Source: a virus
Length of the DNA: 64,000 bases
Direction: 5' to 3' (one strand)
Virus record (IMG/VR): IMGVR_UViG_3300003690_003399
Coordinates: 16,076 to 80,075 of that record
Positions 37,664 through 61,724 of the stretch are shown here, in pieces. Position numbers and translations under genes: made by a program. Each line of letters opens with the position of its first letter. Position 1 is the stretch's first letter. The notes below the pieces were generated by a model. It was given only the letters and a program-made list of their open reading frames with translations. It was not told the DNA's origin and searched no databases.

Positions 37664-39454
37664 ATGCCAAAAATGAAACCATCCATAAATTACACTAGTC
37701 GAGATTTCGAATCCATTAGGGCAGATTTAGAAGCTTACACAAAAAGATACTACCCTGACAATTTTAAAGACTTTACAGAAGCTTCTTTTGGTTCCTTAAT
37801 GTTGGACACCGTTGCGTACGTTGGAGACATGTTATCTTTTTACACAGATTATCAAGCTAATGAATCATTTTTAGATACAGCAATGGAATTTAATAATATC
37901 TTAAAATTAAGCAGCGAATTAGGTTATAAATATAAACCTTATCCATCTTCATTTGGTATCTGTAATTTTTATATAACTGTACCGGCGCAATCTAATTATC
38001 CAGCACCAGATAACACCTATAAGCCGATATTAAAGAAAGGCTCGACTTTCTTTTCTACAGCGAATACAATTTTTACTTTATTAGAAGATGTGGATTTTTC
38101 AAAAAGTACCTATCCCATTGTAGTGGCCGACCAAAATTCAAATACAGGCGCACCTCTTTCATATGCGATACGAGCGGCAGGACAAGTAGTATCGGGCGAG
38201 CTGGCAATTCAAGAAATTTCAATTGGAGAGTTCCAAAAATTCTTAAGAATTAGATTAGATGGCCAAAATATCAGTGAAATAATTTCTATTTTTGACGATA
38301 ATGGAAATCAATATTATGAAGTAGATTATCTCACACAAAACATTTTGCAGGTTCCTGTTTTGAACAAAGGGGATAATTCAAATACAGTCCCTTATATATT
38401 AAAACCTGTCTCAGTTTCCAGGCGCTTTGTGGTCGAGAGCACACCAACAGGTGTGTTTTTGCAATTTGGGTATGGCAGTGAAGAAACACCTGTTTCTTTA
38501 CAAGATCCTTCAGAGGTCATCCTCCAGTTGCATGGAAAAGACTATACCACCGCTACTTCATTTGATCCATCGATATTAAATGAAACTGACAAACTTGGAG
38601 TAGTACCGGCTAATACTATTTTAACGATAATTTATAGAATTAACACAAATGAAAATACAAATGCCGCAGCCAATACTGTAACAAGAGTCGGTACCGCCAA
38701 TTTCCAATTTAATGCCCCCGAAAGTTTAAATCAGGGTAAGAGAAATAGTGTTACAAATAGTTTGGCTACTTTAAACGAAGAGCCGATTATTGGTAACGTG
38801 ACCATAGCCACTGCGGACGAAATCAAACAAAGAGCCAGAGGGAACTTCGCGGCTCAATATCGAGCGGTCACAAAAGAAGACTATATTAGTCTTGCTTATA
38901 ATATGCCTTCAAAATTTGGAAAATTTAAGAGAGTAACAATAGAATTAGATTCCGACTCGTATAATCAGAGAAATCTAAATTTGTATACTATTTCGGAAAA
39001 CACAGATGGAACTTTGATTAAAAGCAATGGCACTCTTAAAAATAATTTGAAAACATGGATAACTCAGTATAAGATGATTAATGACACAATGGACATATTA
39101 GATGCCAAGATTGCTAATATAGGAATTGAGTTTAAAGCCCTAGCTTTCCCCGGGGTCAACAAGTATGATCTTTTAAACGAGGCAGTTACAACTTTACAAG
39201 TTGCCTTCGATCAAACATTTTATATTGGAGAACCATTTTTAATTACTGATGTATACCAAAATTTAAAATCGATTCCAAACTTAATGGACGTAATCGACGT
39301 CAATATTATAATTAAAAGCGGCGCCGCGTACGCGGATTCTCCAATTAGCATCGAAGAGTCATTGTCGGCAGATGGAAGATATGTTATTCCACCAATGGAC
39401 ACAATCTTTGAAATCAAATTTCCAAATTCAGATATAATGGGGACAATACTCTAA
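37664..39454 (+). CDS. Baseplate wedge subunit, T4 gp6/baseplate J-like
   Basis: YTSRDFESI, DF..S.G..LD..AYVGD.LSFY.D.Q.NE.FL.TA, LGYK, RAVTKEDY. Confidence 0.9.
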   Translation: MPKMKPSINYTSRDFESIRADLEAYTKRYYPDNFKDFTEASFGSLMLDTVAYVGDMLSFYTDYQANESFLDTAMEFNNILKLSSELGYKYKPYPSSFGICNFYITVPAQSNYPAPDNTYKPILKKGSTFFSTANTIFTLLEDVDFSKSTYPIVVADQNSNTGAPLSYAIRAAGQVVSGELAIQEISIGEFQKFLRIRLDGQNISEIISIFDDNGNQYYEVDYLTQNILQVPVLNKGDNSNTVPYILKPVSVSRRFVVESTPTGVFLQFGYGSEETPVSLQDPSEVILQLHGKDYTTATSFDPSILNETDKLGVVPANTILTIIYRINTNENTNAAANTVTRVGTANFQFNAPESLNQGKRNSVTNSLATLNEEPIIGNVTIATADEIKQRARGNFAAQYRAVTKEDYISLAYNMPSKFGKFKRVTIELDSDSYNQRNLNLYTISENTDGTLIKSNGTLKNNLKTWITQYKMINDTMDILDAKIANIGIEFKALAFPGVNKYDLLNEAVTTLQVAFDQTFYIGEPFLITDVYQNLKSIPNLMDVIDVNIIIKSGAAYADSPISIEESLSADGRYVIPPMDTIFEIKFPNSDIMGTIL

Positions 39455-41253
39455 TGGCTATTAAAAGATATACAGCGGATGCAGACACAACAATAACAAA
39501 CGCCTTCAAATCAAACTTGTCTACTCGCGGTGTGAGTGGAAATATGGGCCAATCAGATATTCTTGAAGTCTTTTCGATTTACGCGCAAGCTTCAACAGCA
39601 TCGTCGGAGCTAGAAAGAGTTTTAATAAAGTTTCCCGCTAGCGGCACAGCCGCTGGCTATATTTCTTATGATCGATCACAGGGGGACATACCAGCCTCCG
39701 GGAGTGTTTCATTCTATTTAAGAATGTTCGATGCACCTCATTCGCAAACTACCCCTAAAGATTTCAATTTAATTATTTCTGCTGTTTCTCAGTCTTGGCA
39801 AGAAGGGCTCGGTCTCGATATGGAAGAATATTCCGACGAAGACGAGGCCAATTGGCTCTATGCAACCGACACCAAAATTCAAGCTAGTGCCTCGATTACA
39901 GTAAGGGCAAATACTGCCGCAAACACAATTACTTTTACTGGCTCAAACTCGAATTATTTATTTACATCTATTGATGATGCAACGCCAGCCCCAAATTATT
40001 TTCATATTGGTGCGAACACCAGCGCATGCGCTACAAATATAAAAACAATAATCGATGCATCTGCAAGCGCTGACTTTAGCGCATCTGTGGATTCTGCAGT
40101 TGTCACTATATACGCATTTACCGCTGGGACATCTGGAAATTCAGATTCTCTATCTTCAAGTTTAGCTAGCGTTTTTGATGTAACCGGAAGTGATAGTGTT
40201 GCCAACAGCGGTCTAAGTGGAACTTTTGCAGGGGGAGCCAACTTTACTTCATGGATAGCGGAAGGAGGCGATTATTTAACAGACGCTTCTTCTTCTTTTA
40301 CTGCATCTTTTGACACAGGGTTTGAAGATGTAGAATTAGATATTACTCCACTGGTTGAACAATGGATTAATAGCGCAGGCAATGAAGCAGTCTTAGGTGC
40401 TAGAGGGTCACAATTTTTCTTTAGGCGCCCCTACATAGAAGCGCGTTGGGATTCTTCCACTCAAGACAATCGAGGAAGTTTTTATTATAGTAGTTCATTG
40501 GCACCCGCAGCAGACAATTTAAACACTATTTATCTATATAATTATGTACGCGGGCAATTGAAAAACATCCCAGATATTGGAACAGGCAATATTTATATTA
40601 GGGCCTATTCTGGTTCGGCTGCTAATTCTGCCCCCTCGGGATCCAAATTACAATTAAGTATTGGCGGGGGTGTGATATCAACTGATCTTTATAATATCAC
40701 TGGAGGATATGTATCTCCCGGCGTCTACTCTGCATCCTTTGCGTTCACAGGATCCACCTCTTTAACACGAATATTCGATGTGTGGCATAGCGGGAGTACA
40801 CAATATTTTACCGGGACCATCAATCCAGCTAGCTTAACTCAAGTTTGGCCAGGCCAAGCATATAATCCAAATCAACAATACGTGTCTAGTATCACAAACT
40901 TAAAACCCTCGTATTCAAATCAAAATACAACTGCTAGATTCCGGTTATACACAAGAAAGAAAAATTGGAACCCAAACATTTATAGTGTGGCATCCGTAGC
41001 GGCACCCCTTGATTTGGTAGAGAGTGCTTATTATAGGATATACCGCGTAACTGATGACCTAAATATTATTTCTTATGGCACTGGTAGTGATAATAATACT
41101 AAACTATCTTATGATGATAGCGGCAGTTATTTTGATTTAGACATGTCGTTACTTGAAGCAGATAACGCATATGGGATCAAGTTTGTATATTATCTAAACG
41201 GCCAGTATAATCAACAGCCAGAAAAATTTATATTTAGAGTAGAAAAAGCATGA
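39454..41253 (+). CDS. Ser/Thr-rich virion structural protein
   Basis: In the baseplate operon; beta-rich; many SGS/TGS/SAS tripeptides. Confidence 0.65.
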   Translation: MAIKRYTADADTTITNAFKSNLSTRGVSGNMGQSDILEVFSIYAQASTASSELERVLIKFPASGTAAGYISYDRSQGDIPASGSVSFYLRMFDAPHSQTTPKDFNLIISAVSQSWQEGLGLDMEEYSDEDEANWLYATDTKIQASASITVRANTAANTITFTGSNSNYLFTSIDDATPAPNYFHIGANTSACATNIKTIIDASASADFSASVDSAVVTIYAFTAGTSGNSDSLSSSLASVFDVTGSDSVANSGLSGTFAGGANFTSWIAEGGDYLTDASSSFTASFDTGFEDVELDITPLVEQWINSAGNEAVLGARGSQFFFRRPYIEARWDSSTQDNRGSFYYSSSLAPAADNLNTIYLYNYVRGQLKNIPDIGTGNIYIRAYSGSAANSAPSGSKLQLSIGGGVISTDLYNITGGYVSPGVYSASFAFTGSTSLTRIFDVWHSGSTQYFTGTINPASLTQVWPGQAYNPNQQYVSSITNLKPSYSNQNTTARFRLYTRKKNWNPNIYSVASVAAPLDLVESAYYRIYRVTDDLNIISYGTGSDNNTKLSYDDSGSYFDLDMSLLEADNAYGIKFVYYLNGQYNQQPEKFIFRVEKA

Positions 41254-44200
41254 GCACAGACTATAGTAAGATATTTGGTCAAAAAGATATTATTTTGACT
41301 AATACAGATAGAGACACGTTAGCAGCATCAGCAGAATCTGTCAACTACATGACAGAATATTTTAATAAAAAACAAAGATTTGTACCGCCAGTAAACTTTT
41401 CAAACCCAAAATATTTTGCTAGATTTGGGTCTGCTGAAAAGTATTATATTGATGCTATCGATAGAATCTATAAAACATATCCCTACGATGGCTCGCTAAA
41501 AGAGCGAGTACAGTGGGAACTTAGTTCTTCCTACCTGGATCTTCACGTTTTTGAAAATGGTTACCCTCGCACAAATGGGTATGTCTTATTTTCTGCTGAA
41601 GGGTGGGGAACTCAAGTTGCGACTTCAGATGGTTATGGTGCACCAGCCACTTCTTCTTATGAATATATCTTATCTAAAGGCGGCCCCAACACATCTTATC
41701 GTAGCCAGGGAAAAAACATCAGAGATCAGACTGGAGACTATAAAGACGGGTATGCTAATGTTTGGGATGTCGACAAAAATAGAGAATCTAATCTAAAAAT
41801 TGGCGGTATCGATGGCAATACAGTTGAATTTTGGTTAAAGAAAGGTGAGTTCTTAGGATCTTCTCTCACCAACCAAGAAGTCTTATTCGACCTTCATACG
41901 AGCGAGTTCATTTCATCTAGTTTGAACTACGGGCGCCTAACAGTTGAGCTAACTGCATCCACTAGCGGAAGCCCATTCAGAGTCACTTATATGTCCGGGA
42001 CCGCCGGCTTTTCTTACGAAACTATCGGAAGCGGTATAGATACATCTTCTGTAGCAGACGACTCTTGGCACCACTATGCCTTTACTTTAAAAAACACAGA
42101 AAGCGCAGTAGAGGTTAACTTTTTTGTCGATGGCGCGTGTAACCACACAATTATTACTGGTTCTTCAATTAGTTATGTAAGTGGCAACATTAATGCAACA
42201 CTCGGCGCCTTAGCAACAGCACCATCGGGCACGTTTACCCCAACATTAGGGTGGGGTGGTCTATCTGGTTCTATGGATGAATTCAGATTTTGGAAATCCG
42301 AAAGAACTTCCCAACAAATAGGGCTCCAATATATTGAGCCAGTTGGCGGGGGCACCAATACTGACGACGCAAATACTACTCTTGGCGTTTATTATAAATT
42401 TAATGAAGGCATTACACTCACCGCTTCAATCGATAAAACCATTTTAGATTATTCCGGAAGAATTAGCAACGGCAACTTTGTAGGATACAATTCCTCAGCT
42501 AGAAATATTAATTCGGCCATGGTGCAATCTGGCAAAGTCGATAGAGAATTTAAAGATCCCATTTTGTATAACTTCCACCCAGAAGTGGTTTCGTATTATG
42601 GCACAAAAAAAGAGGAGGGGAGACAATATGATTATTCTAATAATTCATCAATCTATTTTACATTACCAGCATGGATTTTAGAAGAAGATGAAATCAAAGA
42701 ATACTCTCCATTAAGAAATTTTACACAAGTGATCGGCAGCTATTTTGATTCACTTGCTAGCCAAATTGAAGCCATTTCCAAATTAAAGCATAAAAATTAT
42801 TTAAGTTCAAGTTATAAATCATATCCTTTTTCTGACAGATTGTTGGAATCTGTTGGGTTTACTTATTTTCCAGAGTTGTTTTCTGACGCTACGGCACTAG
42901 AACAGTTTAGGAACAGAGACGATAAGAAGCTTTTTCAGCAAAAATTATATGATACAAAAAATCGTATTTATCAAAATATTTATAACAACATAGTTTACAT
43001 TTACAAAACAAAAGGAACGGAAAAGTCTTTTAGAAATCTTATTCGTTGTTTTGGCTTTGATGATGAGATTTATAAAATTAATCTATATGGTAATCGGGTT
43101 ACATACCAATTAAAAGATAACTACTCGTCTGTAGCAGAATCAAAAAATTATGTTAATTTTGCATTAACAGGCACACAAAAAGCAACAGTCCATTCATTCT
43201 CTTCGAGCGGCAATCCAAATTCTACATCATTTATTTCGAATGTCACCCCGAAAATGAACTACTTTGGTTTTACAATGGAAACAGAAGTTGCCTTTCCTAG
43301 GCGCTACAGTGTCGCAGATTCAAACATTACAGTACAATCGAATAAGGGAACAAGCAAAACTTTTAGAGCCTATGTACCTTTTAAGACAGCTTCTCTTTTC
43401 GGGATGCACCAAGTAAACGGAACTACCGAGAATGATTTAACATGGGCAACCACTGATTCCGCAAATTTTCAAGTTTATGCTATCAGAGACGAAGACCATT
43501 CAAAAAGATGCCGGTTTAAACTAACCGGCGTCGGAGCTACGGTCATACCAACATTGACGAGCAGCTATTTTGATGAAGTTTTTGATGATACTCGTTGGAT
43601 CTTTTCCGTCTCAGTAAAGCCAAAGATGTATCCACAAGCAGATTTACCATACTTGACCAGTGTTGCTGTCTCCACCGGCCCGGAACGTGGCTACACAGTA
43701 GAGTTTTATGGTGTGGAGAAGATATTAGATACTATTAAAAATGAATTTTTATTAACCGGCTCGATTACTTATAGCGACGGCCTCGCGCTATTAAATAATG
43801 CAAAAAGTATTTATATCGGAGCCCATCGTACCAACTTTTCTGGGTCCCTCCAAGAAAAATCTGATGGACACATTTCTTCTACGCGCGTTTGGCTAATGCC
43901 GCTCACTACGGGAACAATACAACAACACGCACAAGATGCTAAAAATTACGGAGTACCAAGCCCATATAGAAGTGGATATTTATACCAAACTTCAATGACG
44001 GGTACCCGCGTCCCCGAAATACATACATTAGTATTAAATTGGGTATTTGATACTTTAACTGGATCAGATTCTAGTGGAGAATTTGTCGGACAAGACTTCT
44101 CATCTGGCTCAACGAGTTTACAAAATCGCTATAACTGGATTGGGAATATTGTTGGCAAACAATATTTGCCAAAAGGTATTAATTTTCCACCTTCATTTTC

Positions 44201-47200
44201 CAAAACTCTAAATAAAAAATATGTTTATTCAGCAAAGAAACAATTACCAGAGTTTATTAATAGTTCAAACATGGTTAATGTCATGACCGATGATGACATA
44301 TTCTTTAATAAAGTTGATCTACTGAGACCTACAAACTATTATCTTCACATTGAAAAAAGCATGTATCAAACAATCTCTGAAGAAATGATAAGAATGTTTT
44401 CCTCAATTAAAGATTTTAATAATTTAATTGGGGAGCCAGTAAACAAATATCGTAGCAAATACAAACACATGGAAAAACTTCGTCAACTTTTCTTTGAGAG
44501 AGTAGGGAATACACCGGACCTAGATAAGTATATCGATTTTTATAAATGGGTTGACATCACATTAGATGTCCTCTTGGGGTACCTTGTACCAGCTTCAGCA
44601 GATATTGGTGATCAGTATGGCAGCAATATTCGTACATTAGTAGAAAATCATGTGCTTGCGCGCAATAAATATAAGTGGCAGTTCCCAACGATAGAAGACA
44701 AAACTCCAGACATAGAAGGTCATATTCTTAGTATTAACGAGCTTTTATATGGCTGGGAGTTCGGTCACAACCCGACAAGTAGTCTTCAGGCCGATAATTG
44801 TCTTTGGTGGAAAGAACGCGCAGAAAGAACCGACGCGCTAGCAAGTGGCGACTCAAATGTTAATAACGATAAACAAGCAATACTTAACTCTATTAACAAC
44901 GAGACGAATGCTAAGAACTACATGCTATATGATAGTGCAACTAGCACAACTTATTCTGGTTCTACGTTTGCAATCCGCCGATTAGCTAAACCATACAAAT
45001 TTAAAGTCGACGAATCTCGTACAACTAAGGGTGGTACAAATTATTATCCAAATAAAAAAGTGGACATCATTCGAACGGAAACCAATTTAGAAACTTCTAC
45101 AAATTTTCTTGCAGCTCCCGCAGCCAATGTAGAATCATTTAAAGATTGTAATGATGGACTTGATCTGATCACAAAACGTAAATATTCGTTTAATGCTCTT
45201 TTAAGAAGTGAATTAACAACAGCGACCGAGAAAAACTATTTCAACGCAAAGGGCGCCCTGTTTGCCCCATTCAGTATGTATAGTGCCTCCATTTCAGGGG
45301 GTTATTATGATACAGTTTCCAATAATTTTAAAACTTCTTTAGATATTACTAACTTACATGAAGATACCTATGGAACTTTATACGGTGTACCAGTACAGGG
45401 TCCGTTTACTGACAAGTATGTTGGAGGTCTTCAATCTCGTCATGTCGCCTTGACCGTTAATCCGGCACTGACAAGCTCCGCTAACCGCCCTGAAGGATGG
45501 TCTTTATCGTTTAGTAGCAATATCTTAACAATGTCAGGCCCAGCTGTGGGGGTCGAAGGCAGTCGTCCGAAAGCAACGCGGCTTAGAGACGAAACTGCTA
45601 AGCGCCCCATTAATGTGAGAAACATTCAACAAACAACAGGCTCTACAATAATTGGTAACTATACCAAAGATTATGATTTGTTGATGATCGGTGGTCGCTC
45701 AATTAATAATCGCTTTTTTGTCAAAAACGAAGGCGTTTCCGCAAGCTCGATAAATTCTCAAGCTGTAAGTGGTGTTTTAGATTATGATTTACCAGGTGCT
45801 GCACAGTCACAAAGAGATCGACAAGAAGTTGTTATAAATGGTTTGACTTCATCTGCACGCAATGATTATATTATTGTCAACAGATTCTCTGCACCTGGAG
45901 ACCCTTCAACGATGGGGTTTGCTTATTTAGATATCGAGGCGCAGGAATACTCAATTTATAATTCCTTACCATGGCGCAACTTAATTGTTCGCGACAGCCT
46001 CCAAGAATTATATACAGATCATGCAAAACAATTTGGGTATTTTAGTGATGCACAAAATTCAGCAAGCTATGTGTTGGCTGGCATGCCCTATCCTGGAACG
46101 AGCGGATCTGTAAACGCTCTAGATTATGCTGGAAGCGCGTCGTTTCACAAGGTTAATAGAAACCCGAGAAGAATTATTAAAAGCACAGGAGTAGAGTACG
46201 CCAGTTCATATGCTAGTGGAGTCATTTATGATAATTGGCACGTACAACATCAGATCCCACAATCTGATTTACAGTATGCGTGGATTACAGCTAGTGTAAT
46301 TGAAGGATATACCGGCTCAGCATATTATGGCTTTGAGCAACCAAATTTCAGCAATGCAAGTCTAGCTTCTACCGATATTACATTTTGTAGTGCTAGTGAC
46401 TTTGGCTCTTATTGGAAATCAGCATGGGGATTACGACTTTTTGGTGGTACATATGCTGAATTCGGATCGGATCAATTTGTTCCGACTGATTTTGCTGGCA
46501 TAAATTCTAATGTTTATGAGCCTATAACGTCGTCTTTGAACATTTTGGGATATCCATCAGGAGTAGGATCTTATGCCAACTGCTGTGTCACCCCTGGCAC
46601 CTTTCTTGGCTCATCCTACTATCCCCAACTTCTTAACGCTTTGATTCTCCACCGCCAAGGCCCATACGGGTGGCCTTCTTGGAAACAAATTAGAGGTGAA
46701 AGTCACCCTGTAATTAGAAATCATCGGAAAACTAATCGACAATCATTTTTGAAGCTAGAAAAAATTTCTAATGATACAGACGGTCAACCCCGAGATAAGA
46801 AAGTTTTAATTTCTCAAATAGAGCCGCCAGTAAGTTCAAAATATAAGCCGTTAATTCATAGTCTTTTCTTTAAACAAAACATCGATCCAAACAAGAATAA
46901 TTGGTGGAAAAATTCTGAAGAAATTATTATTGACCACACATATGCAAATGAAAAATGTTATTTTCCCCAAGTCGTTTCGGGCACAAAGGCGCTTATTGAT
47001 GGAAATATAGACTTAAATAAGATAGATTCTATTTCCACTTTGGCTGGGAGTATTTCTCAAGATGATAAAACTTTAATTTATGATTCTCTAAATAAGTTTA
47101 TTTTTGGAGACACAATGCAACCTGCGAACCCAATTAGCCAATTTAACTATCTTAAAATTAAAGAGGTTATTTATCCTCGTGAACACTATACGTATCTAAG

Positions 47201-50132
47201 TGGTACCCGAGAGCGCACGAACTTTGCAAATAATTTCTGGCGCGATACACGGAATGCGAGAGACACCGAAGGATCTCCAGATGGAGGTCCATGGGCCAAC
47301 TCACAAGGCTACATTGTTACCCAAAGTATGTGGCCACTAGACTGCCGCTCTGACACAAGTGTTCCCCCCATACCCAACTACTCTAATTTTACAGCATCTG
47401 CAGGTATGGAAGGGGAGCTACAAAATGGATATAGTTTGTTCTTCTCCTCCTCGAACACGGGCCCATTCGCGGCCGCCACCTATCTGCGCCGTGTACCCGA
47501 TAGTGCGTCAGAGGGAATACTGTATGCTGGTGATACCTTGTGGGAAGCAAACACACAAGCAGGAGTAAACCCATTTTATAATAATTATGCAGAATATATT
47601 GAAGAGGCAAAGAGGATTGGGAAAGATTATGGGATCCTACCAGAATTTAGAATTAGCGAACATATGGATTATTATATTAATAGTAATCCGGACGGCAATC
47701 CAAACTTTTTAGTAACCCCACAGCCACCAGGCTTATTCACATTGACTGGTTCGGTTCTTTCTAGTAGTGCCGACGAAGGATTTTATACTGTGTATTCATA
47801 CAGTGATTTTATGAAGTTTTTTGAGCTAGTTAAAAATGATTATATTAGTACGCCAATACCGCAAAAGGAAGCAGACGAGGACGCCGCCATAAGCACCATG
47901 GTCTCATATCCATCTGAATTAACTCTTGAATGCAAAGTTTTGAAAAAGTTTCTTCCATATGACGGATTTTACCCCGCGGAAAGAACAGTTCAATTAGCAA
48001 AATTATTTAGCCAATCTTATGGAGACTCAGTTATACACGCTGAAGGCGCTAACCCAAATTGGAGAACAATGTTGGCGCCATTATTTGCACCCGGACTATT
48101 ATATAATTCCATCAAATCTGGCATTGCAGTAGACTACCCAATCGTCAATGACACTCTTAGTGATGCTACTATAACTTTTACAGGATCTTCCGTTAATAAT
48201 TCGGCCGACTCAGGCGATGCACGCCTATCGGGAACATTTGGCGCCAGGCTTCCGTTTGAAGCTCTGGCTAGCCCAAAAACCTTTTTAGAGGGGACACACC
48301 TTGTCGACGCAGAGCCTAATCCACAAGCTTTTATTGATAGTAGTGGTAGTTTTATTGCCGCGGCAAACCCGCTGTTTATGTACGCAATGAATAACTTTTT
48401 AGCAGAAATTCCTTCATTCTTTTTGGAAAATAACTCATTAAGCACCTTGACCTCTTATGGAGACGTTAGCGCGGCGCCAACGATGGGCGAGGACGTGACA
48501 TATAAAATGAGAATTGTTCTTTCGAACGGCCAGTTTGATACTCTCCATACATTACAAAATGTTGAGAAGGGGTTTCCACCGGCCCTGGAACGAAGTGATA
48601 ACACTGCGTCGTTTATATACAACACTCCGGAAGTCACAATGTACAATCGCTCTTTTGATAGAAACTCCCCGGCCCGTTATTCCGCAAGCTTTGTAGGCGA
48701 CAACAATGCCACACTAGCTTACGGCTCTTCGTTTGGGCCACCTTGCGAGGCCTCGTCTTCTGTCAATGGGCACGAGGCTAGCTTTGAGCCATTTACACCT
48801 CCTTACTATAACGGCTACAGCCACATTGAAGTTTCTTTCCTCTCTGCGGTAGGCGGTGCAATGGAAATGTCCGATATTCTTGCGGCATGCCGGGAGAACG
48901 CAACTTATTTTAGAGAAACCACCAGATCTGGAAGTCGAGAAAGTTCTACGGCCGGAATTAATGCGATGCAAGCCAATGCGTCTTTAAATTGGGATCAACT
49001 AGTGGTTGACGAAGACGGAAGTGAAAGATGGGTAATTCAGCCGAAATGGGAATGTCCTATATTAGATTTTACTACTTCTGATATTACGTTGCCGGAAGGA
49101 GGAGGCTCCGGCTCCGTGGCAAAAGGCATGTGGCATCAATATGGTTCTATCCCATCCGCCGATAACGGTATATACTTATCAGTTCAAGATGTTATGGACC
49201 CAGAAGGAGGGTGGCAGCCTTCTTTGAAAAAACTACTTGGCTATTCCGATGATAATAGTAGAGTAAAATTAGGCGGTTTGGCTAAAAGCAAAACAATTAG
49301 TGAAGCCGTTGTTGCAATCCCGTTTAGGGCGGATCCCCAAAGCCCAAAAAAGAGGAAATATTTTAATATTAATCCGACGGTCATCGACAGCGCGCTGAAC
49401 CCGAATCCCGGCGCCGACATTCCCGATCCGGCTCCCGTTGCCCCTTCCCAAGGGGTTCTAGATATGGTTGAAAAAATGAAAAAATATGTAATTCCCCCAA
49501 CTTTTGATTTTATAACCAATGCTGAAGAGATCCCACCAATGGCCATGTTAATTTTTGAGTTTGAAACAAACTTAAGCCAGAAAGATTTAAGAAATATATG
49601 GCAGAATTTGCCACCAAATGATCAAGGGGATGCAAAAATAAGCAAAAGCCAAGCAGTTATCCCAGCAATGAAAGATATGATTTTTCCTCTCTTTGCAACG
49701 AGTCCTGGCAGCATGTTTGATCACTATGATAAAATACTTGGATTTCCAACCGATGTACAATGGCTCGTTTTTAAAGTAAAACAAAAAGCAAAAACTAATT
49801 ATTTTGATATAACAGCAAAAGATGAATCTTTAAAAGGCGAGACCATCGATGCCCCTTGGCAAACACAAATATCATCTGAGATACCAAACTATAGTTTTAA
49901 TTGGCCATATGATTTCTTCTCCATGATAGAATTAGCCAAACTAGAGATCACATATAAAATAGATCCGCATGGGGATCCGACCCCAAGCGATGGTGGCGCG
50001 CCGCCGACGGATCCCGAGTTTGGAGATGCTGTAGATAATCAACGTGATAACGCGCCCGGCAAAGAAAAGACTCCCGAGAAAGATGGCCCAACGGTGCGGG
50101 AAACAGCGGTTGTGATAGCCCGAACCGATTGA
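41250..50132 (+). CDS. Giant 2960 aa baseplate protein with LamG/ConA-like domains
   Basis: TVEFWLK, WHHYAF, GSMDEFRFW (LamG); YKTKGT resembles gp7/gpI wedge motif. Confidence 0.7.
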   Translation: MSTDYSKIFGQKDIILTNTDRDTLAASAESVNYMTEYFNKKQRFVPPVNFSNPKYFARFGSAEKYYIDAIDRIYKTYPYDGSLKERVQWELSSSYLDLHVFENGYPRTNGYVLFSAEGWGTQVATSDGYGAPATSSYEYILSKGGPNTSYRSQGKNIRDQTGDYKDGYANVWDVDKNRESNLKIGGIDGNTVEFWLKKGEFLGSSLTNQEVLFDLHTSEFISSSLNYGRLTVELTASTSGSPFRVTYMSGTAGFSYETIGSGIDTSSVADDSWHHYAFTLKNTESAVEVNFFVDGACNHTIITGSSISYVSGNINATLGALATAPSGTFTPTLGWGGLSGSMDEFRFWKSERTSQQIGLQYIEPVGGGTNTDDANTTLGVYYKFNEGITLTASIDKTILDYSGRISNGNFVGYNSSARNINSAMVQSGKVDREFKDPILYNFHPEVVSYYGTKKEEGRQYDYSNNSSIYFTLPAWILEEDEIKEYSPLRNFTQVIGSYFDSLASQIEAISKLKHKNYLSSSYKSYPFSDRLLESVGFTYFPELFSDATALEQFRNRDDKKLFQQKLYDTKNRIYQNIYNNIVYIYKTKGTEKSFRNLIRCFGFDDEIYKINLYGNRVTYQLKDNYSSVAESKNYVNFALTGTQKATVHSFSSSGNPNSTSFISNVTPKMNYFGFTMETEVAFPRRYSVADSNITVQSNKGTSKTFRAYVPFKTASLFGMHQVNGTTENDLTWATTDSANFQVYAIRDEDHSKRCRFKLTGVGATVIPTLTSSYFDEVFDDTRWIFSVSVKPKMYPQADLPYLTSVAVSTGPERGYTVEFYGVEKILDTIKNEFLLTGSITYSDGLALLNNAKSIYIGAHRTNFSGSLQEKSDGHISSTRVWLMPLTTGTIQQHAQDAKNYGVPSPYRSGYLYQTSMTGTRVPEIHTLVLNWVFDTLTGSDSSGEFVGQDFSSGSTSLQNRYNWIGNIVGKQYLPKGINFPPSFSKTLNKKYVYSAKKQLPEFINSSNMVNVMTDDDIFFNKVDLLRPTNYYLHIEKSMYQTISEEMIRMFSSIKDFNNLIGEPVNKYRSKYKHMEKLRQLFFERVGNTPDLDKYIDFYKWVDITLDVLLGYLVPASADIGDQYGSNIRTLVENHVLARNKYKWQFPTIEDKTPDIEGHILSINELLYGWEFGHNPTSSLQADNCLWWKERAERTDALASGDSNVNNDKQAILNSINNETNAKNYMLYDSATSTTYSGSTFAIRRLAKPYKFKVDESRTTKGGTNYYPNKKVDIIRTETNLETSTNFLAAPAANVESFKDCNDGLDLITKRKYSFNALLRSELTTATEKNYFNAKGALFAPFSMYSASISGGYYDTVSNNFKTSLDITNLHEDTYGTLYGVPVQGPFTDKYVGGLQSRHVALTVNPALTSSANRPEGWSLSFSSNILTMSGPAVGVEGSRPKATRLRDETAKRPINVRNIQQTTGSTIIGNYTKDYDLLMIGGRSINNRFFVKNEGVSASSINSQAVSGVLDYDLPGAAQSQRDRQEVVINGLTSSARNDYIIVNRFSAPGDPSTMGFAYLDIEAQEYSIYNSLPWRNLIVRDSLQELYTDHAKQFGYFSDAQNSASYVLAGMPYPGTSGSVNALDYAGSASFHKVNRNPRRIIKSTGVEYASSYASGVIYDNWHVQHQIPQSDLQYAWITASVIEGYTGSAYYGFEQPNFSNASLASTDITFCSASDFGSYWKSAWGLRLFGGTYAEFGSDQFVPTDFAGINSNVYEPITSSLNILGYPSGVGSYANCCVTPGTFLGSSYYPQLLNALILHRQGPYGWPSWKQIRGESHPVIRNHRKTNRQSFLKLEKISNDTDGQPRDKKVLISQIEPPVSSKYKPLIHSLFFKQNIDPNKNNWWKNSEEIIIDHTYANEKCYFPQVVSGTKALIDGNIDLNKIDSISTLAGSISQDDKTLIYDSLNKFIFGDTMQPANPISQFNYLKIKEVIYPREHYTYLSGTRERTNFANNFWRDTRNARDTEGSPDGGPWANSQGYIVTQSMWPLDCRSDTSVPPIPNYSNFTASAGMEGELQNGYSLFFSSSNTGPFAAATYLRRVPDSASEGILYAGDTLWEANTQAGVNPFYNNYAEYIEEAKRIGKDYGILPEFRISEHMDYYINSNPDGNPNFLVTPQPPGLFTLTGSVLSSSADEGFYTVYSYSDFMKFFELVKNDYISTPIPQKEADEDAAISTMVSYPSELTLECKVLKKFLPYDGFYPAERTVQLAKLFSQSYGDSVIHAEGANPNWRTMLAPLFAPGLLYNSIKSGIAVDYPIVNDTLSDATITFTGSSVNNSADSGDARLSGTFGARLPFEALASPKTFLEGTHLVDAEPNPQAFIDSSGSFIAAANPLFMYAMNNFLAEIPSFFLENNSLSTLTSYGDVSAAPTMGEDVTYKMRIVLSNGQFDTLHTLQNVEKGFPPALERSDNTASFIYNTPEVTMYNRSFDRNSPARYSASFVGDNNATLAYGSSFGPPCEASSSVNGHEASFEPFTPPYYNGYSHIEVSFLSAVGGAMEMSDILAACRENATYFRETTRSGSRESSTAGINAMQANASLNWDQLVVDEDGSERWVIQPKWECPILDFTTSDITLPEGGGSGSVAKGMWHQYGSIPSADNGIYLSVQDVMDPEGGWQPSLKKLLGYSDDNSRVKLGGLAKSKTISEAVVAIPFRADPQSPKKRKYFNINPTVIDSALNPNPGADIPDPAPVAPSQGVLDMVEKMKKYVIPPTFDFITNAEEIPPMAMLIFEFETNLSQKDLRNIWQNLPPNDQGDAKISKSQAVIPAMKDMIFPLFATSPGSMFDHYDKILGFPTDVQWLVFKVKQKAKTNYFDITAKDESLKGETIDAPWQTQISSEIPNYSFNWPYDFFSMIELAKLEITYKIDPHGDPTPSDGGAPPTDPEFGDAVDNQRDNAPGKEKTPEKDGPTVRETAVVIARTD

Positions 50133-50193: not shown

Positions 50194-51255
50194 ATGGAAT
50201 TTTTAGACGCCAAAGAACAAGTTATTAATTTAGAGTTGACTTCATACGGAAGATTTTTGCTCTCCCAGGGGAAGTTTAATCCAAAAATATATGCTTTTTT
50301 TGATAGTGATATCGTTTATGATTATCGTTTTACGCAGAGCGGCTCGGCCACTAAAACCAAAGAATTACAAAACGACACAGAAGGCCGGATACAAGAAAAT
50401 ACTCCTCGCCTTGCAGCGCAAACTCTTTATAGAGGATCAGAGCTTGGAGTTTTCTCTGCAGAGCCAAATTTAATTTATAATTTGATGCCAGGAGTCTTAG
50501 CAGACAAGAATAATTTAGTAGTAAATTTAACTCAAACGCCTGATAAATCTTATATCTTCCAGGAACCAATCGGTAACTCGGCATATAATTCTAACAATAT
50601 CGCCGCGTGGAACATAGGATTTTATAAGGCTCCCCTTTCTAGTTCAAGCACTGTTTGGACTGGCTCAAGCGACGATATCCCTACCACTTTTATTCCACAG
50701 CTATCTTGTTCTATACAATATGGCCTAGAAACATATGATGTACCAATAGACAATCAAAGCTCAACCAACAGTTGGAAAGACATGGGCGACAAAAGCTTTA
50801 AAGACTTAGAAAGTAAAAAAACAGTTTTGTATGACCCTTCTACGCCAATTATATTTGATGGCGACGGCTACATGATTTATAAAGATGATTTCGCTTTATT
50901 AAAAATAGAGGAAGTAAATACTGAATTTTTAAAAGAGAATTTTGAATTAGAAGTGTTTCGAGTTCATAAGTTAGAGGGCACTGTCAAGGGAGAAACAACT
51001 TATACTGAGACCCTAGAAAAGTTATATTTTGAAGGCTCAGATGTTAAAGAAACAAATCGTGTCGATTATTATTTTGATATTAATTATGATTTTGAAATAA
51101 ATGAAGAAGAATATTGCAAGCTGGCCAGCACCGTAGACAAAGTTAAAAATATTTATCTTGATCAAGTATTTAATTGTGAGAGCAAAAAAGAAATATTGCA
51201 TTCATTAAATATTTATGAAACTGGAGAGAACCAAGAAGAAGAGGATGTGTGCTAA
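50194..51255 (+). CDS. Putative virion protein; N-terminus paralogous to the 58492 protein
   Basis: MEFLD..LTSYGR..L..G.F...YAF.D vs MGFLD..LTDAGR..L..G.F...YAF.D. Confidence 0.65.
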   Translation: MEFLDAKEQVINLELTSYGRFLLSQGKFNPKIYAFFDSDIVYDYRFTQSGSATKTKELQNDTEGRIQENTPRLAAQTLYRGSELGVFSAEPNLIYNLMPGVLADKNNLVVNLTQTPDKSYIFQEPIGNSAYNSNNIAAWNIGFYKAPLSSSSTVWTGSSDDIPTTFIPQLSCSIQYGLETYDVPIDNQSSTNSWKDMGDKSFKDLESKKTVLYDPSTPIIFDGDGYMIYKDDFALLKIEEVNTEFLKENFELEVFRVHKLEGTVKGETTYTETLEKLYFEGSDVKETNRVDYYFDINYDFEINEEEYCKLASTVDKVKNIYLDQVFNCESKKEILHSLNIYETGENQEEEDVC

Positions 51256-54980: not shown

Positions 54981-55002
54981 AATAACATATTTGTTATTAA
55001 AA

Positions 55003-55011
55003 CTAATTAAT
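55003..55011 (+). promoter_or_regulatory. Candidate late promoter CTAATTAAT
   Basis: 25 nt upstream of ATG 55028, followed by AGGA. Confidence 0.45.
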
Positions 55012-55027
55012 TATAGGAAATTTAAAT

Positions 55028-55327
55028 ATGGCAATTAGAGTAACACAATTATACAATTCAAACTTTTTTTCACAAGTAGGCAATGAATACATTTGCACCG
55101 GGTACATGTTTGATGAAGATCTTCAAAAAGAGCCCATGGACATTCAATTAGAAAAAGCCAGTATTTTCATGGCCAATCAAGTAATGATTGATCCAAACAC
55201 TGGAGAGGTTTTAACGGGCGCCACCGCCAACGTAGCAGCTGCAGCAGCCACAGCCAAGTCTACCGGGGGCGCATCAGCGCCTGGTGCTTCGTCAATGGGC
55301 GGCGCAACACAAGGCAGCAATTATTAA
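55028..55327 (+). CDS. Small hypothetical protein with Ala/Gly-rich tail
   Basis: AGGA RBS; 99 aa. Confidence 0.65.
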   Translation: MAIRVTQLYNSNFFSQVGNEYICTGYMFDEDLQKEPMDIQLEKASIFMANQVMIDPNTGEVLTGATANVAAAAATAKSTGGASAPGASSMGGATQGSNY

Positions 55328-55329
55328 AA

Positions 55330-58300: not shown

Positions 58301-58434
58301 AATTTAGATTTACTAGCAAAAAAACTGGAAGAAAGTTTGATTTGAACCTTTCTATCGATGAGCCGTACACAACAGCAGGAACTGGCGAAAGTACACTAGG
58401 CGTAACAGATAGCTATAGCTCAGGAAAATGTTAA
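55330..58434 (+). CDS. Putative virion protein with FN3-like C-terminal domains
   Basis: YIDTQVKY...YYYQVYA and PNKDYYYTVRAIDVHG..SNPS. Confidence 0.65.
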   Translation: MAYIDPKTGDVLGEDSPEVESAILNSIIKGAQSQLICIPFGIPYACPEGYTCPGIPLGSQAWMPGVLDSSDFAENWALQLLDTVVSNMTPYNYDFSIGGNGNSAGWNAHPGSFAPLAQDVHDLDKLRGLVFSRIKDTRYDTNSSNAPKIFIEERSADYLNYSYSPYALTMQNEGGMGISQENLKFLSGWIPDPQEAAIGQDKGHDTLGLLLLKMALTVPANSYLDATFRIQKSFAETAYTEAAGEALGISDPVKVKAHYNFYIQPYEKIIKDLHKLPLGSTDILMTEVIIPNLYALMIDMPKLGNPGLTSEFDLEHGDQWQYHGDDEVIYTNAAFSSGYAHAAATITPGIVYTPKAKSGPVETFNEYLNKFAEALKKTAESHTGDVPYSLSLTLPEKRKYDTIGVSAYKIQDYMDEADKIKKFFPMHVDIEIPAENGGKIGKILYEASLFDEFMQLIIAAMFPRGTNNNVDFHWPTTIIKKDSSIYDDPLTQGVDLAKEKDTLYREPLINLWLNDILNDASMPDLDNFKTNTLGTLIDDGPTLNFLKKINPSLSAPFIRPIIFGKKKTSSMPFITNLKWAAAKKKILNFISQKTRAVSDIYDGKLAYSEILFYEVVKFRRTGTPTDFGGTFVQNIFLPNTPNMAVLKYIDTQVKYDSDYYYQVYAHTVVIGTQYDFANISKSEDVLTLDDNTEATETHISYLYTPSVFLMRVPYYNTYVTMSDVLTAEETGQDFTVDTMDIDKNAAKLEETPIVSHPPVFPDAVFIPLSGEKNKILLNAALNIGEYDLVPESIEDNGDWASDLERIKKNQKKIGTKTKITYKEDDYCGQIEILRIENRPLAWADFAPISNYLIGYAGGSSNFGQIIEQQPNKDYYYTVRAIDVHGYYSNPSPIYQVRIVNKVGEAPYTIVNMFFIDEEPEKKTVGKKDLMKYIRIQPAFKQSYLDDKSITEDYNSVEDFTAAISNGTAVLYNFIGDQTLEEDKEVFGHEFKFRFTSKKTGRKFDLNLSIDEPYTTAGTGESTLGVTDSYSSGKC

Positions 58435-58463
58435 TTAAAGAACGAAAAAACAAATAAAACTTA

Positions 58464-58478
58464 CTAATTATATAAATA
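58464..58478 (+). promoter_or_regulatory. Candidate late promoter CTAATTA followed by TATAAATA
   Basis: 28 nt upstream of ATG 58492; AAGGAG RBS follows. Confidence 0.5.
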
Positions 58479-58491
58479 AAGGAGTATTATT

Positions 58492-59466
58492 ATGGGATTT
58501 TTAGATAATAGTGGTGACATTATTTTAGATGCAGTGTTGACCGACGCTGGCCGCAAAAGACTAGCAGAGGGAAATGGCTCATTTAAAATTACTAAATACG
58601 CTTTTGGCGACGACGAGATTAACTATGGTAATTATGATCCCACTAACACCAACGGCAGCGCATACTATGATTTACAAATTCTACAAACCCCCATACTAGA
58701 AGCCTTTACAAACAACACCGCAACAATGAAATCAAAATTGATGACCTTAACCAATAACAATATTCTTTATTTACCCGTAATCATTGTAAGTCAGGCCATC
58801 TCAAGATACCAACTTAATAATATTATAGGATCCGGCTCAGTTGTAGTACCAGTAGATATCACAACTGTTAACAAATTCACTGATGTCGACAGCGCACCCG
58901 GGCTCGGCATGGGGCCTTATATTGATGGCACGAACCCTGGTGGATCTACGAGTCAAGATATTAGATGTGATCAAGGTCTAAACACATTAGAAATACCAGC
59001 AACATATAAGCTTGATGCTGAACTGACAGAACATCAATATATTGTAGAAATAGATAATCGTTTTGGACAAATTACAGCCGGCACATTAGCCGGCACCGGC
59101 CAAGTGGGACAAGTTAAACAATCATATTCTTTTATTGATGATGATAATGTTGCTAGCTATTATTTGTCAACAGCAGTATACGTTGATGATATCAAAGCAA
59201 AATCCACAACGGGCATCAGCAACGCCGAAGAACAATCGAATGACGCCCTCAAAGGCCCACGTGGCACCAAGTTAGAAATTAGAATTAGAGCCTCCACAAA
59301 TTTGAGGACTAGCACGTATCTATTTGAAAGATTGGGAAGCACTTTTTCTTTTACTATCAACGGCGTCGTCACCGATTTTTATGCCATTGATACAATTGTC
59401 AGAATCACCGGCGCAACTACAGGATATAAATTGGACCTCCCAGTTAAATTTGTGAAACAACAGTAA
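58492..59466 (+). CDS. Putative baseplate/fibre-attachment protein
   Basis: LTDAGRKRLA...ITKYAFGD resembles the N-terminus of P2 gpH-type tail-collar fibre domains. Confidence 0.6.
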   Translation: MGFLDNSGDIILDAVLTDAGRKRLAEGNGSFKITKYAFGDDEINYGNYDPTNTNGSAYYDLQILQTPILEAFTNNTATMKSKLMTLTNNNILYLPVIIVSQAISRYQLNNIIGSGSVVVPVDITTVNKFTDVDSAPGLGMGPYIDGTNPGGSTSQDIRCDQGLNTLEIPATYKLDAELTEHQYIVEIDNRFGQITAGTLAGTGQVGQVKQSYSFIDDDNVASYYLSTAVYVDDIKAKSTTGISNAEEQSNDALKGPRGTKLEIRIRASTNLRTSTYLFERLGSTFSFTINGVVTDFYAIDTIVRITGATTGYKLDLPVKFVKQQ

Positions 59467-59482
59467 TTAAAGGAAGAAACAT

Positions 59483-60547
59483 ATGGCTACTACATTTAAA
59501 ACGTTTTTGAATAACGACATTGCAACAACAAGAACCTTGTTGCACGAAGCAATCCCCATAACGGGAACCATTGTATCGGGGACATATAGTGATAATAATA
59601 TTAAAAACTACACTCATGGAATGTTTCAATCTGTTTATGATTATCCATATTTAAGTTCTTCCGCAAACCATATTTTTGATCTTACGGTTGGAATGGGCGC
59701 CAATAGTTTCTTTTCTTCTTCTAAAGTTAGTCAACAATTTACCAAAAAGAGAAATGTTTATGACCAAATGGCACAAGTTTTAGTTCCCTATGATATTAGC
59801 GGCAATATTCAGGCGTTTGACCAGGACGGCAAAATCCAAGATGGTGGTAACAAATTCAATGATGCCTTTTTCATTAATTTTGCTCGCCTCTTAAACAAAG
59901 ACGAAGTTAAAAAAGGATCCTTTACCATAGCCTTCTTAACGGGAGGAGTTGGAGGAGACACCACTAATTCATTAACAATATCAGATTATGGCGCCACAAG
60001 CAGCTTTAAAGTGAACAGCCCCACTGGTGAATACGGGTTGCTTTACACAAGTTCTGCCACCCCAGCCACAGACAGCGCGGTCGGGCATATTTATTATCAA
60101 GCCGGAATCGCAGTTATAACCGCTAGCATTTTTAGTAATAATTACTTAACCCCAACAGATTTTTGTGAATTCGGGGCCCCCGGAGCTACTTACGATACAG
60201 GCAGCTACCAAGCCGTTTTATCAGCTTCTACAATTCAATCCTTTGCGGACGGCTTAAGAAACAGATTATATAATATTCAATTTAATAATACAACTGAATT
60301 AAATTCAACAATTTACTTCTGTCGCGCAAATACAGGCGATTATAATTACTCTTCAAACCCGACATATATAAGCTCTAGTAAAATTGTGGTGAAAGCTAAT
60401 ATGCCTTTCAATGAACCCATTTCATATATAACAACAATTGGTCTATATTCTCCTCAAAATGAACTTTTGGCCGTAGCTAAAGTATCAGAGCCATTGAAGA
60501 AGACTCCTAGCAATGAGCTTACGTTGCGCGTCAGATTAGATTACTAA
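59483..60547 (+). CDS. Putative baseplate/tail structural protein
   Basis: C-terminal YITTIGLY...ELLAVAK..P.KK shared with the next gene. Confidence 0.65.
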   Translation: MATTFKTFLNNDIATTRTLLHEAIPITGTIVSGTYSDNNIKNYTHGMFQSVYDYPYLSSSANHIFDLTVGMGANSFFSSSKVSQQFTKKRNVYDQMAQVLVPYDISGNIQAFDQDGKIQDGGNKFNDAFFINFARLLNKDEVKKGSFTIAFLTGGVGGDTTNSLTISDYGATSSFKVNSPTGEYGLLYTSSATPATDSAVGHIYYQAGIAVITASIFSNNYLTPTDFCEFGAPGATYDTGSYQAVLSASTIQSFADGLRNRLYNIQFNNTTELNSTIYFCRANTGDYNYSSNPTYISSSKIVVKANMPFNEPISYITTIGLYSPQNELLAVAKVSEPLKKTPSNELTLRVRLDY

Positions 60548-60551
60548 TGTT

Positions 60552-61724
60552 ATGCCTTATTATGAATTTAAAGACAAAGACATCCTTAGAAATACTTTAA
60601 AGACACATCCAGAATATCAATTTAATATTTATAGTGGAAGCATTTATTTAAATAATCAATATAATATATCTGGCGCCCATGTAAATAATGTAACTATGGT
60701 ACCCTCTGGCTTTGTTAGCTTATACGAATTAAACATTGATAGAACTTCCGATGATAAAATTTATCCTTTTATCACAAAGGATGGTAATTTTACATCTATT
60801 GGAACAGTTACAAATGCTGAGTATAATAGTAGCTTTCAATATGGAGACGTGATCAGCGGCTCTTATCCAATGTCGGCTAGTATTGTACGGCAAAGATTTG
60901 TCACTGGTCATGGTGATTCAGCTACTTCTCGGATTACAGCCTTAAAAAACACTTTAAATTATTATACATATCTCAGCCCCGCTTATCAATATAGTTCTTC
61001 CTTGGGAGATAAAGCTCAACAAGAAATTAATTTGATAAGTATTCCATCTATCTTTTTTGATAGTGGAATAAAGCCTGGTTCTGTTGATTTAAAGTTTTAT
61101 ATTACTGGCACTCTTGTTGCACAAGCCACCGATAAAAATAAAAATGGTGAATTATTTCAAGTAACAGGAAGTACATATGCACAAGCTAACGGTTCAAACT
61201 CTGTGGCTGGAGTTGTTTTATATAATGAGGGCTTTGTTCTGTTAACTGGAAGTTGGGATATAACAGAAGCTAGCTATGATTTTGGAGACATCACTCGTGT
61301 AGCTTCTTGGCGAGATTTCGCAGCCGGCGCCAACGATAATCAAGATACCACACTCACTCTTTCGGCCAGTTTCCAATTTAATTTTAAAGGAACGAATGAA
61401 ATCTCCACACTAGCTATGTATGCAATTGCGCCCAAGGGCAACTTAAACCATTCAAGTAATCCAACTTATCGTTTATATGAGAGTGCCTCTTTGGCACCTC
61501 GCTCGGAGCGCCATGCTTATGTAGAGTCTCCAAACATCCCAATGGCAAATACAATAAGCAGTTCATTCTGCAATTTTTCTGCGTCCTTTAAAAAACAAAC
61601 ATTTATTAGTAAAATAGGGATATATGATGACGATAGAAATCTTATAGCGGTAGCAAATTTGGCCACCCCTGTAAAGAAGACTGAAGATCGAGCGCTCACT
61701 TTCAAATTAAAACTAGACATTTAG
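60552..61724 (+). CDS. Putative baseplate/tail structural protein, paralog of 59483
   Basis: IKPGS, G.V.Y..G, N.S.NPTY, FISKIGIYD..NLIAVA..PVKK. Confidence 0.65.
   Translation: MPYYEFKDKDILRNTLKTHPEYQFNIYSGSIYLNNQYNISGAHVNNVTMVPSGFVSLYELNIDRTSDDKIYPFITKDGNFTSIGTVTNAEYNSSFQYGDVISGSYPMSASIVRQRFVTGHGDSATSRITALKNTLNYYTYLSPAYQYSSSLGDKAQQEINLISIPSIFFDSGIKPGSVDLKFYITGTLVAQATDKNKNGELFQVTGSTYAQANGSNSVAGVVLYNEGFVLLTGSWDITEASYDFGDITRVASWRDFAAGANDNQDTTLTLSASFQFNFKGTNEISTLAMYAIAPKGNLNHSSNPTYRLYESASLAPRSERHAYVESPNIPMANTISSSFCNFSASFKKQTFISKIGIYDDDRNLIAVANLATPVKKTEDRALTFKLKLDI

Follow-up and report, generated by a model that had tools for sequence, protein, structure and literature searches.

In Che8-type mycobacteriophages, in the account given in PMC12619734 (citing Freeman et al. 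2023), virion glycans are carried on the C-termini of capsid and tail-tube subunits. The phage's structural proteins are believed to be modified in the cytoplasm by glycosyltransferases (GTs) that the phage itself encodes, which would give the particle its glycan coat. The bacterial transferases Aah and TibC likewise act in the cytoplasm, O-glycosylating many Ser/Thr residues of the beta-rich surface proteins AIDA-I and TibA (PMC3835316). GtfA/GtfB, an adjacent GT-B pair, initiates intracellular Ser O-glycosylation, which variable GTs extend; its acceptors are of the S-A-S type, and SlpA of Lactobacillus buchneri is glycosylated in Ser-Ser-Ala repeats (PMC5796085). Chloroviruses use virus-encoded soluble GTs to build capsid glycans independently of the host endoplasmic reticulum and of lipid carriers. 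These glycans are N-linked to Asn at non-canonical sequons. This study concerns a 64,000-nucleotide stretch of viral DNA (IMG/VR record IMGVR_UViG_3300003690_003399, positions 16,076 to 80,075; hereafter the window), the final 64 kb of an 80-kb contig. A set of virion proteins in the window is enriched in a pentapeptide, PHI-[S/T]-[G/A/S]-S-PHI, where PHI is a hydrophobic residue. This pentapeptide is a candidate cytoplasmic O-glycosylation acceptor signal on the phage's own outward-facing virion proteins, a reading to which we assign a probability of roughly 0.5; the link between motif and glycosylation is correlative.

Like the mycobacteriophages, the present phage encodes GTs (two of family GT4, a GT2, a GT-A and a GT47-like protein). 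Its candidate sites, by contrast, are pentapeptides scattered through the interior of the sequences, in the baseplate, fibre, sheath and capsid I-domain regions; the tail-tube orthologues are not enriched, and both phage lineage and host range differ from those of the mycobacteriophages. Aah and TibC are bacterial autotransporter heptosyltransferases (BAHT), another family than the phage GT4 pair, and they act on bacterial adhesins built with 19-residue repeats. For Aah, the literature reports no sequence consensus (PMC3835316), whereas a clear pentapeptide is seen here. The adjacent GT4 pair, kept in all relatives of the phage, recalls GtfA/GtfB, and the two proteins are candidates for joint action. 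However, GtfB is a non-catalytic partner, whereas both phage proteins keep the EX7E motif and neither has DUF1975 in Pfam; the GtfA/GtfB acceptors are long low-complexity Ser-rich repeats, whereas the phage motifs are isolated and flanked, inside folded domains. Chloroviruses are eukaryotic giant viruses, and the similarity of a phage GT to their protein B736L is modest and says nothing on the acceptor. Cytoplasmic N-glycosylation of the HMW1C/NGT type differs in that N-x-S/T is not enriched here. The present case resembles the mycobacteriophage, Aah/TibC and GtfA/GtfB systems in part and is a member of none of them, because DUF1975 is absent, the enzymes are GT4 and not BAHT, the motifs are dispersed rather than placed in repeats or C-terminal tails, and neither N-x-S/T nor D-[ST]-[AILVMT] is enriched.

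Tripeptide enrichment in virion proteins

An earlier note on this DNA had reported, from hand counts, that [S/T]-[G/A/S]-[S/T] tripeptides are concentrated in some virion proteins, and had proposed a comparison with composition-preserving shuffles. In this study, the open reading frame (ORF) translations of the whole window were counted for [ST][GAS][ST], and the expectation was taken from 1000 shuffles per protein. The excess is present in all four proteins that had been named as rich in the tripeptide, each encoded on the plus strand. The 599-aa protein (39454..41253), which lies just downstream of the gp6-like baseplate wedge and consists of Ig/FN3-like beta-sandwich domains, has 22 tripeptides against 9.0 expected (z 4.6); a giant baseplate/fibre-type protein of 2960 aa (41250..50132) has 57 over its whole length against 21.4 (z 7.7); a 354-aa protein (59483..60547) has 11 against 3.9 (z 3.8); and a beta-rich 390-aa protein (60552..61724) has 12 against 3.7 (z 4.5). 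The hand counts of 22, 12 and 1 for the 599-aa protein, the 390-aa protein and the wedge were exact on recount, and the "many" and "several" given for the 2960-aa and 354-aa proteins became 57 and 11. A fifth carrier, the 353-aa protein (50194..51255, plus strand), has 7 against 1.3 and is the weakest, since part of its score comes from an SSSST run: four overlapping matches (aa 149, 150, 151 and 156) arise from a single SSSSTVWTGS stretch, and [ST][GA][ST] occurs only 3 times against 0.8 expected. Pooled, the five carriers have 109 tripeptides against 39.7 expected (z 11.6). The 596-aa gp6-like wedge (37664..39454, plus strand) serves as an internal negative control, with 1 against 3.0 and flat counts in all its orthologues. 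No enrichment was found in the other 46 ORFs of the window, which include structural-region proteins of 1444, 2455, 1243 and 1034 aa.

The Ser, Thr, Gly and Ala content of the five carriers is above that of other proteins, and an excess in such fibre proteins might arise by chance or from composition. This explanation has a practically negligible probability, and the local-shuffle and permuted-order controls rule it out. Shuffling inside 40- or 20-aa windows barely shifts the expectation, and the excess stays. Against such local shuffles, [ST][GA][ST] gives z 5-7 in the 599-, 2960- and 390-aa proteins and z 2.1-2.6 in the 353- and 354-aa proteins, whereas the permuted order [ST][ST][GA] is flat (z -1.6 to 1.1) and [GA][ST][ST] is weak at most (z 2.7 or less). 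The excess depends on residue order. The size of the pooled score, and the z of 22 reached by the extended motif described below, also argue against an artefact of composition, as do the fibre proteins of the control phage MED4-213, which are very rich in the same four residues and have no order-specific enrichment.

An extended pentapeptide

Between two hydroxyl residues, an excess was found only for Gly (46 against 10.8), Ala (30 against 10.8) and Ser (33 against 16.7); every remaining middle residue lies within about 1.5-fold of expectation or lower, and the structural proteins used as controls have no such pattern. Position 3 shows a strong preference for Ser over Thr. The residue preceding the motif is hydrophobic in 44 of 76 sites (24 expected), which bears out the remark in the earlier note that an aromatic or aliphatic residue often stands there, and the residue following it is hydrophobic in 38 of 76. 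Before the motif, Lys and Arg are under-represented; Gly was never found directly after it. The motif is thus best written PHI-[S/T]-[G>A>S]-[S>>T]-PHI. In this extended form it occurs 42 times in the five carriers (3.6 expected) and never in nine neighbouring structural-region ORFs totalling 7,710 aa (2.5 expected). The sites are dispersed, as had been claimed, and do not form low-complexity runs: their median spacing is 15-35 residues, and the carriers have no internal repeats.

The comparison once drawn with the N-x-S/T sequon holds loosely: the middle residue is always small, the hydrophobic flanks matter, and N-x(not P)-[ST] itself is not enriched in the five carriers (53 against 57.1 expected). 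The D-[S/T]-[A/I/L/V/M/T] motif of Bacteroidetes, with 25 against 17.6 (z 1.8), was also taken as not enriched. General O-glycosylation in Bacteroidetes acts outside the cytoplasm, where assembling virions are not present.

Two trivial sources of the pattern were rejected. Ser and Gly codon usage is the same inside and outside the motif, which rules out a signal at the DNA level. A common repeated domain is ruled out too, since internal repeats are absent and no mutual similarity is detectable among the carriers except in the paralogous 354- and 390-aa pair (blastp E 1.5e-10, covering the C-terminal half of the 354-aa protein). Because the carriers are non-homologous, have no internal repeats and use ordinary codons, the motif has a convergent origin, as would be predicted if a trans-acting factor recognizes it.

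Distribution among related phages and controls

The phage is an abundant marine myovirus of the Far-T4 type. Its window encodes gp25-like and gp6-like baseplate proteins, and a complete relative of 186 kb with terminal repeats (G001) has a gp23-type major capsid protein (MCP), a sheath, and a portal of T4 type and a terminase, of which portal and terminase are closest to RM378 relatives. The closest cultured phages are Flavobacterium phage immuto, Microcystis phage Mel-JY01 and Rhodothermus phage RM378. The Far-T4 group was described from viromes, without mention of GTs (PMC4360716).

Genome-wide motif scans were made of G001, immuto, Mel-JY01, RM378 and a 322-kb jumbo relative (G011). The enriched proteins are those encoded just after the gp6-like wedge, giant baseplate/fibre proteins, and annotated tail fibres and spikes of immuto; the orthologue of the 2960-aa protein has 46 against 15 in G001 (3233 aa) and 17 against 4.3 in G011. 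The sheath is enriched in relatives (10 against 5.0, 13 against 5.5 and 10 against 3.4), and the capsid protein more weakly (9 against 2.6, 5 against 2.4 and 7 against 2.7; z 4.1, 1.7 and 2.7). Portal, terminase, tube, tape measure, gp6-like wedge, transferases and replication enzymes were never enriched in the scanned relatives. None of the 12 sites in the G001 sheath falls within its conserved C-terminal core (p 0.005). Within the G001 MCP, 8 of 10 lie in residues 129-325 (p 0.004), a segment between the blocks that align to T4 gp23; it corresponds by position to the I-domain and linkers that protrude from the capsid surface in T4. This segment of the G001 MCP (L081:11586-13340) is about 100 residues longer than that of T4, cannot be aligned with its immuto counterpart and represents a hypervariable insertion at the surface.

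Each GT4-pair genome scanned has a genome-wide observed/expected ratio of 1.4-2.2 and 5-14 enriched ORFs. When five such genomes were pooled (G000, G001, immuto, Mel-JY01 and RM378), the extended motif occurred 136 times in the enriched proteins against 16.5 expected, or 6.3 per 1000 aa, as compared with 0.43 per 1000 aa in their other proteins and 0.48 in controls. The controls were four T4-like phages, Escherichia phage C6, Vibrio phage K489, Rhizobium phage RL2RES and Prochlorococcus phage MED4-213, none of which has a relative of the first GT4 protein. Their genome-wide ratios are 1.1, 1.0, 1.23 and 1.34, and their enriched ORFs number 0, 0, 0 and 3, respectively. The matches in MED4-213 (HQ634174.1) have neither hydrophobic flanks nor a Ser preference, and its mild [ST][GA][ST] excess is apparently a different, compositional effect. 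The four control genomes rule out a general trait of myovirus tail and fibre proteins. The co-occurrence of enrichment with GT genes suggested by the earlier note thus holds across the relatives and fails to appear in the four T4-like phages that lack the GT, although shared ancestry may account for it.

Selection and turnover of the sites

More than 4,000 metagenomic relatives were found for each of the 599-aa and 390-aa proteins, and ocean surveys contributed many of them; the 599-aa protein has no tblastn match in the cultured phages. Its 120 best homologues are all enriched (median z 4.3, as compared with 0.8 for permuted controls). In an alignment of 70 sequences, five sites of this protein are near-invariant (among them SGS at 39697-39705, SSS at 40489-40497, SGS at 40609-40617 and TGS at 41080-41088), ten are kept in 50-80% of sequences, and 74 columns bear the motif in fewer than 20%; Ser and Thr swap freely at positions 1 and 3. 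Motif Ser/Thr residues of the 599-aa protein are retained as Ser/Thr in a fraction of 0.78 of homologues, against 0.60 for other Ser/Thr (p 1.5e-4), and the conservation of their surroundings is below average. Purifying selection acts on the motif hydroxyls.

In the 390-aa family, 6-7 of the 12 sites are near-invariant as whole pentapeptides, hydrophobic flanks included; ISGSY (60855-60863), ITGTL (61104-61112), LTGSW (61245-61253) and ISSSF (61557-61565) are examples. Among orthologues at 23-28% identity, only 1-5 sites per pair fall in a common alignment column, slightly above chance and subject to alignment error at such distances, and the strong excess persists (13 against 2.0 in G011, for example). 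Site turnover with density maintained is the behaviour of modification sequons.

Structural setting of the sites

Structure models of the 599-aa and 390-aa proteins are beta-rich, and fold searches gave generic Ig/FN3-like sandwich matches only, with no specific fold match for the 390-aa model. In the secondary-structure strings of these models, Gly-centred sites lie at tight hairpin turns (Y-SGS-I, I-TGT-L, L-TGS-W) or strand ends, and Ala- and Ser-centred sites are more often inside strands. In confident regions, 9 of 17 sites span the boundary between strand and coil, where 5.0 would be expected (p 0.04), a placement that lends modest support to a surface position of the sites; the 390-aa model, of moderate quality, contains three clear hairpin cases. 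A ConA/LamG-like lectin domain inside the giant protein (41817-42320, plus strand, aa 190-357 of the 2960-aa protein) itself bears 8 motif sites.

This setting brings forward the main rival of the glycosylation reading, namely that the motif is structural and unmodified: a strand-end cap, a tight beta-hairpin turn (PHI-S/T-G-S/T-PHI) or a strand with a small inward residue, in the surface beta-sandwiches of the lineage, with the GT island serving another purpose. Hairpin turns and strand termini are indeed where the Gly-centred sites are seen in both models, the carriers are beta-rich with generic Ig/FN3-like matches, the invariant pentapeptides of the 390-aa family keep their flanks, and background proteins show a mild, 1.4-1.6-fold excess of the extended motif. 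However, the like beta-rich sheath, capsid and fibre proteins of the four other T4-like phages have no excess, the carriers are non-homologous to one another, and middle Ala and Ser are enriched though they are poor turn formers. The free exchange of Ser and Thr at positions 1 and 3, and the movement of most sites at about 25% identity with density constant, also speak against it, and we regard it as somewhat unlikely.

A further possibility is that the hydroxyl pairs act unmodified as surface chemistry, binding polysaccharide, mucus-like gels or ordered water in the manner of T-x-T ice-binding surfaces or of surfaces that bind carbohydrate, and thereby aiding adsorption. The alternation of the motif would put both hydroxyls on the same strand face, the carriers are outward-facing, and the giant protein has its lectin-like domain. 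The sites, however, are scattered singly and form no flat arrays, the motif spans the thermophile phage RM378 and marine and freshwater phages of different hosts, and neither the hydrophobic flanks nor the Ser preference at position 3 would be accounted for; this makes the proposal very improbable.

Glycosyltransferases of the lineage

The first GT4 protein (6105..7373, plus strand) is a core gene of the lineage with an invariant EX7E motif (E288-x7-E296). It is always adjoined by a second, GT4-like protein (7370..8380, plus strand), which also retains EX7E. Pfam assigns the conserved pair to Glycos_transf_1 (GT4) and matched no heptosyltransferase family; DUF1975 had no Pfam match at E 0.01 in either protein. 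The best PDB sequence match of the first protein is chlorovirus NY-2A B736L (3oy2, E 3.4e-8). This protein is present with EX7E kept in 11 of 11 metagenomic relatives examined, G011 included, at 40-72% identity; the pair as such occurs in these 11 and also in the three cultured phages, where the order PD-(D/E)XK nuclease, GT4, GT4-like is common to all. The genes that follow differ among immuto, Mel-JY01 and RM378, and in RM378 nothing more is found. The second protein keeps EX7E in 4 of 5 genomes, the RM378 copy being without the second Glu; its window copy, at 336 aa, has a C-terminus about 75 aa shorter than the orthologues (409-455 aa). In Mel-JY01 the first protein is annotated as two ORFs. 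In G011 (C1:236967-249971), only about 3.5 kb separates the pair from the gp6-like wedge and motif-rich proteins downstream of it, a far shorter distance than the window shows.

A variable glycan island (8382..22312, plus strand) follows the pair. In addition to the GT2, GT-A and GT47-like transferases, it encodes several methyltransferases, a KdsB-like cytidylyltransferase, a KdsA-like synthase, a radical SAM protein, a class III aminotransferase, a cupin, an HAD phosphatase and a UDP-sugar dehydrogenase. Because no flippase, polymerase or polyprenyl-phosphate transferase was found by Pfam in the island, the glycan is presumably built in the cytoplasm.

The evidence for recognition in trans (convergence, selection and turnover) does not itself name the enzyme. 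The motif could therefore be an acceptor or recognition site for another lineage-specific factor, through phosphorylation, acylation or phosphoglycosylation, or for a chaperone that binds extended PHI-x-small-x-PHI peptides, and the lineage has many conserved genes of no known function. The annotated part of the window shows no kinase or acyltransferase, however, and among modification-type enzymes the GT4 pair alone was found to be conserved in every relative. It is also the only glycan gene of RM378 at this locus, and RM378 has little else of the sort. Such a factor is clearly unlikely.

DNA is disfavoured as a target of the GTs by way of classical hydroxymethyl-pyrimidine glycosylation, since no ThyA-family (hydroxymethylase) gene is present in G001, RM378 or Mel-JY01, three of four complete genomes; the 5-hydroxycytosine route likewise requires a ThyA-family homologue (PMC13326640). 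A natural fusion of the two GT4 proteins, which would have been a sign of joint action, was rejected, as the 800-900-aa relatives (P0242 and others) consist of the first protein interrupted by some 450 aa immediately behind its EX7E segment AEGFGL. The insertion starts with Cys and ends in VHN before Ser, and from these features it looks like an intein in the catalytic motif of the transferase. An independent cellular context for the GT family was sought as well, and all genome-collection matches were contigs of metagenome-assembled genomes (MAGs) that resemble phage DNA. These contigs (L218-L227) were binned under the labels Pelagibacter, Woesearchaeota, Saccharibacteria, Flavobacteriales, Ignavibacteria and others; they probably represent phage DNA, and one of 184.7 kb may be a whole phage genome.

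Two other proteins of the window carry weak matches. A 233-aa protein (4311-5012), whose gene immediately precedes those of the PD-(D/E)XK nuclease and the GT pair, has a below-cut-off match to ATLF / M90 zinc metallopeptidases. The 1444-aa protein (24285-28619), which is not motif-enriched, contains a weak Peptidase_M74-like (murein endopeptidase) segment at about residues 1231-1296 and is possibly a tail-associated lysin.

Discussion

The motif is specific in residue order, convergent, under selection, turning over in position and limited to outward-facing parts, a combination best explained if a trans-acting factor recognizes it. The conserved, adjacent GT4 pair is the likely partner of the motif. 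The earlier note had read the tripeptides as acceptor sites for the glycan island as a whole; enrichment, location and co-occurrence with GTs favour that reading, with the refinement that the GT4 pair is the likely partner and the rest of the island would provide variable extension. Its expectation that sites lie on exposed parts was partly borne out, as they tend to strand-loop junctions and to outward-facing or lineage-variable domains.

Late in infection, the GT4 pair (6105-8380), with its first member as the proposed initiating transferase, would add a first sugar to Ser/Thr at the end of a beta-strand or the tip of a hairpin. Soluble enzymes of the variable island may then extend the glycan with a Kdo-type acid sugar and with amino and methyl tailoring. 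The outcome would be a lineage-specific glycan coat on the baseplate periphery, the fibres, the outer domains of the sheath and the capsid I-domain. Modification of the motif, the GT4 pair as its enzyme, the hydroxyl used and a role of the glycan in shielding, adhesion or stability are what we infer from these patterns.

Several observations weigh against glycosylation at the motif. Some tail-region proteins of the window (1243, 1034 and 324 aa) are not enriched, and neither are the sheath and MCP of RM378. The outer regions of sheath and capsid are richer in Ser/Thr anyway, which accounts for part of the location effect. The motif is not avoided in non-virion proteins of the GT-pair phages, where avoidance is what a promiscuous cytoplasmic transferase might impose. 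The alternation PHI-x-small-x-PHI and the placement at strand ends and hairpins fit a purely structural turn or cap motif, and the invariance of pentapeptides with their flanks in the 390-aa family is also expected of a structural element. The structure models are of moderate confidence, with a pLDDT (predicted local distance difference test) of 66 for the 599-aa and 61 for the 390-aa protein. Moreover, the genomes with the motif all belong to one MCP lineage. GTs and motif may therefore occur together because both were inherited once, and none of the relatives examined was found to have lost the GT pair. A second, unrelated lineage with the GT pair was not found either: the jumbo carriers share the MCP lineage (42-56% MCP identity), and the distant relative P0382 gave no viral locus. 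The MCP neighbourhood of LR756508 is a stretch without tail genes.

For the Far-T4 lineage as a whole, abundant and found worldwide in marine and freshwater settings and ranging from 130-kb thermophile to 320-kb jumbo phages, we tentatively propose, with somewhat less assurance than for the motif as an acceptor signal, a sequon-directed cytoplasmic O-glycosylation of the virion exterior, in which the GT4 pair would read the pentapeptide where strands meet loops and swappable cassettes would give each phage a sugar serotype of its own. Should the glycosylation reading prove wrong, the motif would still be a strong sequence signature, unusual and specific to the lineage, for which a structural explanation is needed. 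Large GT islands are common in aquatic phage genomes, where their targets are mostly unknown; an acceptor motif makes the question directly testable, as it predicts the residues and proteins that bear sugar, and three cultured phages (immuto, RM378 and Mel-JY01) carry the pair. If the proposal is true, bacteriophages would have their first defined protein-glycosylation sequon. Phage particles could then bear a genetically encoded, variable glycan coat, which would bear on adsorption, particle stability, grazing and aggregation at sea, recognition by host defences, and the structural annotation of viromes.

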